Shown here one piece after another: positions 17,501 through 19,850 of a DNA stretch of 64,000 bases. The stretch comes from an uncultured Actinomycetota bacterium (GTDB taxonomy: Bacteria > Actinomycetota > Actinomycetes > JADGOV01). The stretch's first letter is position 1. Every line of letters starts with the position of its first letter. The stretch lies in the NCBI GenBank assembly GCA_963814355.1, contig CAWFCZ010000018.1:201692-265691 (forward strand). Direction: 5' to 3'. The notes under the pieces were generated by a model. The model was not told the origin of the DNA and made no database searches. It worked only from the letters and a program-made list of their open reading frames with translations. Position numbers and translations under genes: made by a program.

Positions 17501-18362
17501 CGGCGGTACCGGTGAGCCGGGCCAGATCGTCGGCGAGGACGGCCATCTCCTTGCCGGATTTCAGGTAACCCTCCGCGTTGGCCCGGTCGACGTGCCGGGC
17601 GTCCAGCACGACCAGCTGCCGGGCGGCGTCCAGGACGTCGGCCACCGGCGCGTCCGTCCGGTCGGCGAAGCGCACGGCATTGCTGAGCACGGCCGGTACC
17701 CGATGGTCGGCGGCGAAGGTGAGCAGCCGAGCCGCCCGGTCACCGTCACCACGCCCGCGGTGATGCACGATCTCGACCAGCAGATCCGCCGGGTCCACCG
17801 CGGCCCGCCACCGATCCAGGCAGGCGCGGGCCAGGTCGGGGCGCCGCAGCGCCACCGCCCGGCCGACGTCGGAGTCGGGACCGAGCAGGACGAACAACCG
17901 CCGGGCGTGGGTGGCCAGCAGATCGAGGCTGGTCACCGGCAAGCCACGTTCCCCGGCGAGGTGGGTGGCGCTGGTGAGCCGGCACAGCGCCGCCCAACCG
18001 GTGAGATCCCGCGCCAACAGCGTGATCCGGGGGTGGCCCGGGTCGACGTAGGACCCGCCCCGGGCCGGTGCCAGCCGGGGTGGCGGGCCGGAGGTCCGGA
18101 CGGCTCCCGGGCAGTGGGCCTGCCGTGGCGGGTCGACCGGTCGGGCGGCGACGGCGAGGTTCACCCCGAGTATCGGACGCACCCCGGCGGCGGAGCAGGC
18201 CTGAAGGAACTTCACCGCGCCGTAGACCCCGTCCCGGTCGGTCAGCGCGAGCGCGTGTTGACCGTGCTCGGCCGCCCGTTCGACCAGCGTCCGTGGATGG
18301 GACGCGCCGTAGCGCAGGGAGTAGCCAGACGCCACGTGCAGATGGACGAACGGATCGCTCAT
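14529..18362 (-). CDS. dnaE2: Error-prone DNA polymerase DnaE2 (Pol III alpha-like, PHP domain) with an unusually long C-terminal tail (~110 aa extra)
   Basis: N-terminal PHP motif (HLHVASGYSLRYGASHP), polymerase core, OB region. 1277 aa. Start ATG overlaps the upstream gene stop (ATGA). Confidence 0.85.
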   Translation of the reverse strand: MSDPFVHLHVASGYSLRYGASHPRTLVERAAEHGQHALALTDRDGVYGAVKFLQACSAAGVRPILGVNLAVAARPVDPPRQAHCPGAVRTSGPPPRLAPARGGSYVDPGHPRITLLARDLTGWAALCRLTSATHLAGERGLPVTSLDLLATHARRLFVLLGPDSDVGRAVALRRPDLARACLDRWRAAVDPADLLVEIVHHRGRGDGDRAARLLTFAADHRVPAVLSNAVRFADRTDAPVADVLDAARQLVVLDARHVDRANAEGYLKSGKEMAVLADDLARLTGTAGRDGTDLLARTYLVAEQCALPPGAGGLGLGEVHFPELGTGRPAAGLPGAGLPGEPVADAVLRARCEAGYDRRGRPITADATRRLDEELAMIAGLGYASYFLTVGDVVEIIKGMGVRCAARGSGAGSLVTYLLGISDVDPLEHGLLMERFLSPLRAQLPDVDIDVESARRMEVYEAVLAHFGAERCACVSMMDTYRARHAIRDVGAALGLPPGEIDTIAKAFPHLRASQVRAALRDLPELRASGLAGPDGRGGRLDLLFRLVERLDGLPRHIAVHPCGVLLSDATLLDRTPVEASWLGFPMSQFDKDDVEALGLLKLDLLGIRMQSAIAHAVAEVRRLDGAEVDIDAVPRDDPATFALVQSTKTLGCFQIESPGQRELIGKFSPVSFADLIIDISLFRPGPVKTDMVRPFLESRQGWSQSSYLHPDLEPVLAETYGVVVFHEQVLRIVAICTGCSLAEADEVRRALGDPVGQPEVRTWFYPAALGRGYSLDVVERVWEVLKGFGSFGFCKAHAAAFAVPTYQSAWLKAHYPAAFLAGVLTHDPGMYPKRLILDDARQFGIAILGLDVNRSDAEYRTERVGRYDEPPPEILDAPPRAAPPPELPDGRDYGIRLGLADVRGITEAEIARILAGRPYASLTDFWHRAAVSRPVAERLVVAGAFDELYGIGSALAVRRRGRVTRRDLLLQVVELDSWSRSVARAAAPRGRRRSPGAAPPVAGSAPATVLELATRQSQAAARAPAVAEIAVQLTLDLGAAPGEVAPSGLPEMTGVERVRAELDVLGLDASQHVLSGYAPFLNELGVTRARDLLGRRTRSEVLVAGVKVATQTPPVRSGRRVVFLTLDDGTGPLDATFFEDAQVGYASTLFHSWLLVLRGITRRTGPRGISIRATGCWELPALWTSWRDGGWPAVSQLLARPPGLTTSALEAAVHGAAQSRSTRPVPAGVPVGGGAILAPTGFAQSPYADIRSAGAGGPPPHPGRKLWHASQGSSGR

Positions 18363-18958
18363 CCGGCGGACCGTCCGGGTTCCGCGGACCGTCCGGGTTC
18401 GGCGGGCAGTCCGGGTTCCGCGGACCGTCCGGGTTCGGCGGGCAGTCCGGGTTCGGCGGGCAGTCCCGGACCGGTGCCAGGCACCGGCAGTAACGGCTGA
18501 TGCACCCGGCCCAGCAGTTCGGTGATCAATGCCAGGAAGGTCTCCGCGTCGCGCAACAGGTCATCGGCGTCGCGACGGGTGACCGCACCCGGCAACCGGG
18601 CCTCGGCAGCAGCCCGCTTACCGGCCCCGACGGCGAAGAAAGCGGCCCACTCGGCAAGCTCCGGGGACACCCCAGGCACGAGATCCCAGACGCTGCGCGG
18701 TCCCCGCCGGCGGGTCTGGTTCCGCTCTGGTCTGGCCCGGGCGGCGAGCACGGCTGCGCCGGCCCGCAATGCGGCCAGGTGGGCGGCGGCGTACCGCTCG
18801 GCCGGCGTGCCGGCCCCGGCTGCCTCGGCCAGGCCACGTCGGGCCAGCGCGAGGAGGTCCTCGACGGCTGCCGGGCTGCGGTCCGGCGGCCCGGAGATCG
18901 AAGGAGCGAGCCTCGAACGAGGGAGCGTCGAAGAAGCGAGCGAAGAAGCGGACATGGC
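18359..18958 (-). CDS. Small alpha-helical protein, HEPN-like (resembles the SAV_6107-family HEPN proteins of actinomycetes); alternative start at 19156
   Basis: ERYAAAHLAALRAGAAVLAARA...SVWDLVPGVSPELAEWAAFFAVGAGKRAAAEA is reminiscent of SAV_6107-type HEPN proteins. This is a memory-based inference. Translationally coupled to dnaE2. Confidence 0.4.
   Translation of the reverse strand, partial: AMSASSLASSTLPRSRLAPSISGPPDRSPAAVEDLLALARRGLAEAAGAGTPAERYAAAHLAALRAGAAVLAARARPERNQTRRRGPRSVWDLVPGVSPELAEWAAFFAVGAGKRAAAEARLPGAVTRRDADDLLRDAETFLALITELLGRVHQPLLPVPGTGPGLPAEPGLPAEPGRSAEPGLPAEPGRSAEPGRSAG
18363..18471. repeat. Six tandem 18-bp repeats GGCGG(A/G)C(C/A)GTCCGGGTTC encoding an (E)PG(L/R)(P/S)A hexapeptide array at the C-terminus of the gene upstream of dnaE2
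   Basis: Seen directly. In frame with the ORF at 18359..19156 (PGLPAEPGLPAEPGRSAEPGLPAEPGRSAEPGRSAG), and ends 1 bp before the dnaE2 start. Confidence 0.7.
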
Positions 18959-18963
18959 AGCCC

Positions 18964-19395
18964 TCAATCCAGGACGCAGGTGATCGACCAGACCCCAGCG
19001 CCCCAGTCGAAGCAGAGGTCGTAGACCCCGGTACCGGCCCAGTGACCGGCGCCGGCCTCCACCCGCCAGCACTCCCGCTCGCCGTCGTCGACGGTGAGCG
19101 ATCCGACGGCGGCACCGACATCCGGGGCCGGCTCGCCCCAGGCCCGCTGTCCCCACTTGGGTGTCGACGGGATCGTCGACAGTACGAGATCAGCCGGATC
19201 CCCACCGCCCGCCGCCGCGGCGTCCTCGACGTCGAACAGCGGCCGGGCAGCCGTGCCGTGCCACCACCCGCCGGACTCCGTCCAGGTGGCCAGAACGGCC
19301 CGCACCAGGTAAATCCGTCCCCGCCAGAGGAACTGCTCGGGGGCGTCGTCTCCCCGACGTACCTCAATGGTTTCCGCGCATCGCCGCGCCATCGC
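18964..19395 (-). CDS. Small hypothetical protein (possibly DUF6504-like), first gene of the SOS/dnaE2 operon; the ORF could extend to 19626
   Basis: MARRCAETIEVRRGDDAPEQFLWRGRIYLVRAVLATW...WRVEAGAG. Its stop lies 6 bp before the next gene's start. A LexA box sits about 170 bp upstream. Confidence 0.35.
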   Translation of the reverse strand, partial: AMARRCAETIEVRRGDDAPEQFLWRGRIYLVRAVLATWTESGGWWHGTAARPLFDVEDAAAAGGGDPADLVLSTIPSTPKWGQRAWGEPAPDVGAAVGSLTVDDGERECWRVEAGAGHWAGTGVYDLCFDWGAGVWSITCVLD

Positions 19396-19566
19396 CTGCT
19401 CCCTCCGCTGCACCAGCAGCCAGCCGGACCGTCGGATCGGCACCGGGGGAAGGCGGCGCGACGGCGCCGGTCGCAGAGGTGCTTCCCCACACCTCGACGA
19501 CCGGGCCGTCGGGATCCGATGCTGGACGGCGGGTCGAAGACCGGCCAGCGTCGCATCCCCAGTCAG

Positions 19567-19582
19567 TCGAACGTCTGTTCGA
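19567..19582 (-). promoter_or_regulatory. LexA SOS box (Cheo-type) TCGAACGTCTGTTCGA, perfect match to actinobacterial consensus TCGAAC-N4-GTTCGA
   Basis: Seen directly. Located in the divergent region between the small-protein/HEPN/dnaE2/dinB operon (minus) and the WS/DGAT gene (plus). It is the only perfect site found in the window. Confidence 0.7.
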
Positions 19583-19850
19583 ATGACGAAGTCAGTAAAC
19601 CTCGGGATCGGCCGTCTCGTCAACACCTGTTCCGCGGCCTTGGCCGTTCAGTTGGCGCGACCGGGAACCTGCGAGGTGCCCGAGGAGCCGGTCCTGAGTT
19701 CCATTGGCTTCGATCCTGCCGAGCCCGGTCCAAGCCGCTCCAGGCCACCCTCCAAAGGTTGCGTATCGTGACCGCCCCTGGACGTTGGGTAGGGCCTGGT
19801 TCTGGTGCTGTATGAAGGAAGCTGACTGCGGAGGTGGCACTGTGGAGCGG

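Follow-up and report, generated by a model that had tools for sequence, protein, structure and literature searches.

The analysed window is a 64-kb stretch of DNA from an uncultured Actinomycetota bacterium (contig CAWFCZ010000018.1), with a G+C content of 72.5%. Its nearest relatives are metagenome-assembled genomes (MAGs) of Frankiaceae; Micromonosporaceae, the family in which a preliminary description of this DNA proposed to survey dnaE2 neighbourhoods, is not upheld. On the minus strand, behind a LexA (SOS) box, lies a cassette of four genes encoding an ImuB-C-like protein (open reading frame A, ORF-A), a HEPN protein (ORF-B), the C-family polymerase DnaE2 and the Y-family polymerase DinB (PolY). 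The features of the cassette, in window coordinates, are as follows.

19567-19582, no strand assigned: LexA box TCGAAC-N4-GTTCGA, a perfect palindrome (TCGAACGTCTGTTCGA), upstream of the four minus-strand genes
19392 (ATG) to 18964 (stop), minus strand: ORF-A, imuB-C-like, 142 amino acids
18955 (ATG) to 18359 (stop), minus strand: ORF-B, HEPN_SAV_6107, 198 amino acids
18364-18466, minus strand: 18-nt tandem repeat, 5.7 copies, encoding the PGLPAE/PGRSAE tail of ORF-B, lineage-specific
18362 to 14529, minus strand: dnaE2, DnaE2B-like, 1277 amino acids
14378 to 13149, minus strand: dinB (PolY), 409 amino acids

The LexA box matches the actinobacterial SOS-box consensus at 12 of 12 positions and is the sole match in the window with 2 mismatches tolerated (expectation 0.05); LexA binding and induction by damage are predicted here on this basis. 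The stop of ORF-A is separated from the start of ORF-B by 8 nt, and ORF-B overlaps dnaE2 by 4 nt (ATGA), so that ORF-A, ORF-B and dnaE2 are translationally coupled. The dinB gene starts 150 nt after the dnaE2 stop, and within this gap neither a predicted terminator-like site nor a second LexA box (2 mismatches allowed) was found; dinB is probably carried on the same transcript as dnaE2. The preliminary description had reported a perfect LexA box, the gene order with its ATGA overlap, and tight coupling of all four genes; the box, which is also conserved in relatives, and the order stand, and the coupling holds for the first three genes but not for dinB. The products of ORF-A, dnaE2 and dinB are identical to sequences on record (ORF-A as P0001). 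No other Y-family or RecA-like open reading frame was found in the window, in agreement with the earlier statement that canonical imuA'/imuB are missing from it.

ORF-A matches the Pfam family DUF6504 (E 5e-16), and several lines of comparison connect this family with the C-terminal domain of ImuB. A BLASTP comparison with QBR94233, labelled ImuB-C in the supplement of PMC12926913, gives E 5e-24, and in alignment the motifs of ORF-A are all common to the "ImuB-C" proteins of that study, including VEP41449. The Pfam DUF6504 model matches a proteobacterial ImuB over its final 80 residues (E 6e-4) and 5 of 40 ImuBs at E < 0.01. A profile built from diverse DUF6504 proteins is colinear with ImuB C-termini (hhalign E 1.3e-4), and a profile from close homologues gives a weak hhalign match to a single ImuB. 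In a profile search of 1.84 billion proteins, the best 150 matches are exclusively small standalone proteins. In the AlphaFold2 model of ORF-A, residues 3-39 and 106-141 build a six-strand beta barrel, and the stretch between them, 40-105, is a disordered insert. There is no close relative in the PDB, where the sequence search returned only spurious matches to ribosomal L19e; ImuB itself has only Pol IV relatives there, and ImuB-C is likewise described as having no close PDB relative (PMC12926913). Because the DUF6504 model, the hhalign result, the shared motifs with the BLASTP match, and a barrel with no close PDB relative all point the same way, ORF-A is assigned from its sequence as a standalone ImuB-C domain. 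The earlier suggestion of a small protein standing in for part of ImuB is thus borne out at the level of sequence, and the accompanying claim that the small proteins are unrelated to ImuA'/ImuB fails for ORF-A. The insert of about 65 residues (window 19077-19275) holds a strongly conserved motif, PKW(G/A)QRAWGEPAPDVGA, restricted to close, Frankiales-like relatives. A correlation between a large ImuB-C insert and the presence of HEPN was considered and rejected, as insert-less ImuB-C proteins adjoin HEPN too.

ORF-B belongs to HEPN_SAV_6107 (PF18726; Pfam E 2e-33, above the gathering score); NCBIfam has no model for either ORF-A or ORF-B. Its HEPN fold is a four-helix core at residues 27-147 with disordered tails, and its closest folds are MNT-HEPN toxin-antitoxin type proteins (2hsb, 1ufb, 1wol). 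The earlier reading of a HEPN-like protein with a hexapeptide tail is therefore sound; the tail, encoded by the 18-nt repeat, is absent from 27 homologues. The Rx4-6H catalytic motif is absent from ORF-B, whose last helix reads R128-DADDLL-R135 with no histidine, and the family was listed as lacking the catalytic motif, with no gene context given, in the 2013 survey of HEPN proteins (PMC3710099). From this the protein appears to be catalytically dead.

The DnaE2 product contains PHP, palm, fingers, HhH and OB domains (Pfam), retains PDVDID at residue 445, and scores under both NCBIfam cut-offs, those for error-prone and for replicative DnaE. Over its N-terminal 420 residues it is 49% identical to the DnaE2B of T. 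lapidicaptus (E 3e-101; both proteins have 1277 residues) and 46% identical to that of S. alboniger (Streptomyces); by identity over this region it is placed in the B group. Its C-terminal end, KLWHASQGSSGR, resembles the conserved C-terminal motif of DnaE2 proteins. DinB contains all Y-family domains (Pfam) and scores above the NCBIfam cut-off for Pol IV. Its catalytic residues are intact (DMD at 24-26, DE at 118-119), as had been proposed, and it is 56% identical to PolY VEP41451 of the published module discussed below. DinB also has a QLLLG resembling a clamp motif at residue 365 and, at its C-terminus, a RecA-NT-like motif (AEQAADRAARRFGPGAVRP), the likeness to the RecA N-terminus being judged by eye. 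The C-terminal segment GW-EAE-A-DRA-RRFGPGAV aligns with VEP41451 and with the scDinB2-like protein QEV17291.

These proteins correspond to a system described computationally in February 2026 (Nucleic Acids Research; PMC12926913), in which DnaE2 proteins were divided into groups A, B and X and a DnaE2B-PolY-ImuB-C-RecA module was recognised in Actinobacteria only. In five species the tetramer was proposed from AlphaFold models, and the examples are T. lapidicaptus, Janibacter indicus, Kineococcus radiotolerans, Ornithinimicrobium pratense and Nocardioides euryhalodurans. The locus shares with this module the DnaE2 lineage, an active PolY with a RecA-NT-like C-terminus, and a standalone ImuB-C; imuA/imuB were not seen with the module and are likewise missing from the window. 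The locus differs in the 65-residue disordered insert of its ImuB-C. By sequence the cassette matches the module, with RecA presumably supplied from elsewhere, and because of the identities of its PolY (56%) and DnaE2B (49%) it is of a type already known, from computation alone. The publication names no HEPN gene, LexA box or leader RNA, and HEPN is absent from its supplements too; no published work joining "HEPN" and "DnaE2" was found. In its Janibacter and Kineococcus examples the accession numbers leave room for exactly one gene between those of ImuB-C and DnaE2B, and one accession is also skipped in the Ornithinimicrobium example, where however the PolY accession is out of order. In related loci of the present survey, the gene at the skipped position is HEPN_SAV_6107. 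The proposal of an undescribed variant of the mutagenesis cassette accordingly falls for the cassette type and survives for the conserved HEPN gene and the leader hairpin described below, which are found in no published description.

Comparison with other known systems places the locus more closely. The canonical ImuA'-ImuB-DnaE2 mutasome of mycobacteria (PMC10421592, PMC6511836) is similarly LexA-controlled, docks DnaE2 through an ImuB-C domain, and obtains clamp and RecA-type contacts from a Y-family protein. Unlike it, the locus has no ImuA' (RecA-like) reading frame in the window, an intact Y-family protein that is unfused to ImuB-C, a DnaE2 of the B rather than the A group, and an extra HEPN gene. 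The Streptomyces dnaE2-dinB2 operon (PMC3273824) also has dnaE2 followed by a dinB-type gene (identities 46% and 41%) and is damage-inducible, with about 6-fold induction by ultraviolet light (UV) and methyl methanesulfonate in reverse transcription PCR. Its DinB2, however, lacks the N-terminal ~90 residues including the DMD and is regarded as inactive, whereas the DinB of the locus is intact; its two genes are joined by a 4-bp fusion instead of being separated by a 150-nt gap; it has no imuB-C, and the HEPN gene of Streptomyces lies elsewhere, without a LexA box. It is a sister form of the module. The Geobacter lexA-imuB-C-polY type operons (PMC3765255, PMC6511836) resemble the locus in placing a small ImuB-C and an active Y-family polymerase together under the SOS response, but such standalone ImuB-C operons have neither DnaE2 nor HEPN and often encode lexA or SRAP.

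The conservation of the cassette was assessed in a genome scan with the HEPN protein as seed and one genome per species, which retained 80 loci, 41 of them outside Streptomyces and 39 from Streptomyces/Kitasatospora. The gene arrangements were distributed as follows.

Non-Streptomyces, imuB-C, HEPN, dnaE2 and dinB: 19 loci
Non-Streptomyces, imuB-C, HEPN and dinB: 3 loci
Non-Streptomyces, HEPN and dinB: 10 loci
Non-Streptomyces, HEPN alone: 8 loci
Non-Streptomyces, HEPN and dnaE2, ended by the contig: 1 locus
Streptomyces/Kitasatospora, HEPN alone: 39 loci

Outside Streptomyces, imuB-C and HEPN occur together in 22/41 loci, and 32/41 have a same-strand dinB downstream within the flank; the tightest genomic partner of the HEPN protein is PolY. 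A LexA box, counted at >= 11/12 specified positions, stands at the 5' end of the cassette in 38/41 non-Streptomyces loci versus 1/39 in Streptomyces/Kitasatospora. A metagenome survey with a degenerate DNA pattern for the ImuB-C motif ERExWRVEA yielded 83 evaluable loci. HEPN directly follows imuB-C in 71 of them (86%), imuB-C leads straight to dnaE2 in 8, and neither arrangement is seen in 4. The box is present in 48/54 HEPN-type metagenomic loci with enough upstream sequence and in 2/12 HEPN-less ones. All evaluable loci with HEPN and dnaE2 carry dinB too, and no dinB was seen within the available flank of the HEPN-less metagenomic loci. No similar cassette was found in a plasmid collection. 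Of the forms that the non-canonical actinobacterial module takes, the one seen at this locus seems to be the most common.

The eight loci in which imuB-C is followed directly by dnaE2 without HEPN (L103, L123, L125, L130, L141, L186, L190 and L202) are nearly devoid of LexA boxes, L125 having an 11/12 match. None has a convincing leader hairpin, the sole covariance-model match among them being borderline (L123, E 0.97). These loci look like a distinct, differently regulated subtype. In Streptomyces/Kitasatospora (L003-L009 and about 32 more, near position 10000), HEPN_SAV_6107 is solitary, without imuB-C, dnaE2, dinB or hairpin. In L006, the single Streptomyces locus examined, the HEPN gene lies between ABC-transporter genes and a methyltransferase gene, next to TgpA as in the window. 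The Streptomyces/Kitasatospora HEPN gene looks like a cassette remnant at the ancestral site.

Two further variations concern the approach to dinB. A gap of about 0.8 kb precedes dinB, after dnaE2 or HEPN, in many relatives (for example L010, L014, L021, L035, L040 and L051); in L018 the gap gene at 10116-11345 appears SAM-methyltransferase-like from its translation alone, and the gap gene is missing from the window and from its closest relative, L027. A perfect LexA box lies directly between HEPN and dinB in L070 (10517), L071 (2356), L077 (2804) and L080 (10423); three of these loci are labelled Propionibacteriaceae and one is an unclassified Actinomycetota MAG, and in three of the four this box is the second one.

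The leader between the LexA box and ORF-A contains three elements, all on the minus strand.

19466-19505, minus strand: hairpin HP1; its stem of roughly 16 bp has a closing G-C pair, and the invariant loop, at 19482-19489, reads UGGGGAAG; covariance-model match at 19456-19514
19445-19452, minus strand: CUUCCCCC, anti-Shine-Dalgarno-like, exactly complementary to the loop of HP1 (GGGGAAG)
19399-19406, minus strand: GGAGGGAG, resembling a Shine-Dalgarno sequence and lying 6 nt upstream of the ATG of ORF-A (19392), read from the sequence

The decamer GTGGGGAAGC, comprising the loop and the closing pair of the hairpin, recurs in the leaders of distant genera. In an alignment of 30 leaders, 86% of the cells in the 16-pair stem can pair, versus 61% in shuffles and at most 46% with the partners slid; the leaders were chosen for motif and stem, so the paired percentage is inflated while the variety of pair types is unaffected. 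Both sides vary in 15 of the 16 stem pairs, with a covariation score of 0.675 versus 0.22. Because G-U cells (49) outnumber A-C cells (6), the structure is placed on the sense strand. Applied to about 2 Mb, a covariance model of the hairpin (R1) gave 43 matches, of which 39 have E < 0.05; all matches at E < 0.05 lie in cassette leaders on the cassette strand, with none elsewhere and none in Streptomyces. The hairpin occupies the same place in L010, L018, L021, L027, L032, L034, L035, L051, L056, L063, L064, L066, L067, L069, L072-L076, L079 and L082, and in about 20 metagenomic loci. Rfam has no relevant match up to E 10 within 19300-19720. GGGGAAG hairpins noticed in Streptomyces were discarded: they are near-identical sequences on the opposite strand about 1 kb upstream of HEPN, within an ABC-transporter coding region in L006.

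The loop complement is itself recurrent. CTTCC[CT]C occurs 0-27 nt past the hairpin in 25 of 37 hairpin leaders, where 0.02 per 90 nt would be expected and the upstream control gives 1/37. Frequently it is presented by a second small hairpin. In the minimum-energy fold of the window, the CUUCCCC element pairs with the Shine-Dalgarno/AUG region (z -4.2). The leader looks like a three-element translational switch, consisting of a Shine-Dalgarno-like loop, an anti-Shine-Dalgarno element and the Shine-Dalgarno sequence. Candidates for its trigger are the HEPN protein and a C-rich small RNA of the 6C kind; in actinobacterial 5' untranslated regions, 6C binds loops rich in G (PMC6486639).

Taken together, the locus is likely, as judged from its sequence, to be a LexA-repressed operon for a translesion or mutagenic DnaE2B-PolY-ImuB-C(-RecA) polymerase module. 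DNA damage would activate RecA, upon which LexA would cleave itself and vacate the box at 19567-19582, releasing a single transcript of imuB-C, HEPN, dnaE2 and probably dinB. The ImuB-C beta barrel would dock the C-family polymerase DnaE2, as the C-terminal domain of ImuB does in the canonical mutasome, and the active Y-family polymerase would bring clamp-binding and RecA-binding motifs. Made together, the proteins could assemble into a lesion-bypass complex, a step borrowed from the AlphaFold models of homologues (PMC12926913). The HEPN protein, made in step with the polymerases, is most simply seen as an accessory or regulatory subunit. The leader hairpin, with a loop (GGGGAAG) complementary to a downstream CUUCCCC element for which the ribosome-binding site is a second possible pairing partner, may add translational control on top of LexA. 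A stronger form of this proposal holds that in most Actinobacteria the system is a four-protein SOS module, with the dead HEPN protein as an integral subunit or regulator, and with a leader-RNA switch that gates translation after LexA release through HEPN or a C-rich small RNA such as 6C; this form is considered unlikely.

Several observations weigh against parts of this reading. The 150-nt gap sets dinB apart from the coupled genes, which leaves its place on the transcript a matter of probability. Deletion of DnaE2 in Streptomyces produced no UV phenotype (PMC3273824), so that a mutagenic role of DnaE2B is putative. Across 28 leaders, the pairing of CUUCCCC with the Shine-Dalgarno sequence has energies of -12 to -26 kcal/mol and is weakly better than in shuffles (mean z -0.73), and only about half of the HEPN loci under LexA control have the hairpin. 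The HEPN gene occurs without polymerases nearby in Streptomyces, Micromonosporaceae and Actinomadura, and the T. lapidicaptus cassette appears HEPN-less by accession adjacency; from these two facts it follows that HEPN is not obligatory for the polymerase module.

The same facts speak for an independent role of the HEPN protein. It could be an SOS gene of its own that shares an ancestral position and promoter with the polymerases and acts outside their complex, for example in RNA metabolism or in post-damage growth control. Consistent with this, loci of Micromonosporaceae, Actinomadura and Nonomuraea have a solitary HEPN gene preceded by both a LexA box and this leader hairpin; the solitary Streptomyces/Kitasatospora genes lack the box with 1 exception, and L006 is syntenic with the window (methyltransferase, TgpA). 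The AlphaFold tetramers, moreover, were modelled well without HEPN (PMC12926913). An independent gene would not, however, readily account for the insertion of HEPN between imuB-C (8-nt gap) and dnaE2 (4-nt overlap), for its presence in 86% of evaluable imuB-C loci, or for the same-strand dinB downstream of it in 32/41 non-Streptomyces loci. The HEPN-less loci in which imuB-C leads to dnaE2 also lack dinB in the flank, any convincing hairpin, and nearly every LexA box. An independent HEPN gene is considered possible but rather doubtful.

Alternatively, the HEPN protein may be an RNA-binding autoregulator of the invariant hairpin loop, freeing or capturing CUUCCCC and thereby tuning the translation of the polymerases. 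RNA binding or RNase activity is typical of HEPN domains (PMC3710099), the loop is invariant on a covarying stem, and its complement follows in 25/37 leaders. Hairpin matches at E < 0.05 occur only upstream of HEPN cassettes, with either imuB-C or HEPN as first gene, and in 0/12 HEPN-less loci; as HEPN or imuB-C served as the seed for finding the loci, however, this association is weakly controlled. About half of the HEPN cassettes, moreover, have no detectable hairpin, and the G-rich loop might alternatively serve as a binding site for a C-rich small RNA such as 6C (PMC6486639), as a ribosome standby site or as a stability element. Autoregulation by HEPN is judged quite unlikely.

A toxin-antitoxin-like pair of ORF-A and ORF-B wired to the SOS response, with HEPN as an RNase toxin, as had been raised earlier, would fit the MNT-HEPN-type fold of ORF-B and the overlapping style of two small genes, but it is rejected as very unlikely because the Rx4-6H motif and an MNT (nucleotidyltransferase) partner are both absent, and further because ORF-A is an ImuB-C domain and the pair is always embedded with polymerases, is not mobile and has no counterpart in the plasmid collection.

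The preferred reading, a LexA-repressed operon for the DnaE2B-PolY-ImuB-C module, bears on how DnaE2-type polymerases are assembled and restrained. DnaE2-type damage-induced mutagenesis drives drug resistance in mycobacteria. If the HEPN protein and the leader matter, they would give an extra protein partner and a second, post-transcriptional layer of control to a system whose regulation has so far been ascribed to LexA only; if they do not, the locus simply adds another member to the 2026 module.

The surroundings of the cassette show a few further features. A divergent gene for a wax-ester synthase/DGAT (WS/DGAT) lies at 19704-21251 on the plus strand, with the LexA box in the shared intergenic region (19583-19703 lying between the box and the gene), and this gene might also be LexA-controlled. 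Downstream of the cassette, the block at 7031-12982 encodes a DUF3040 protein, a histidine phosphatase, a TgpA transglutaminase, a DUF58 protein and a MoxR AAA ATPase, and is syntenic with the neighbourhood of the Streptomyces HEPN gene. A thiamine pyrophosphate (TPP) riboswitch at 44996-45107 on the plus strand is the sole Rfam family above its gathering score in the window.

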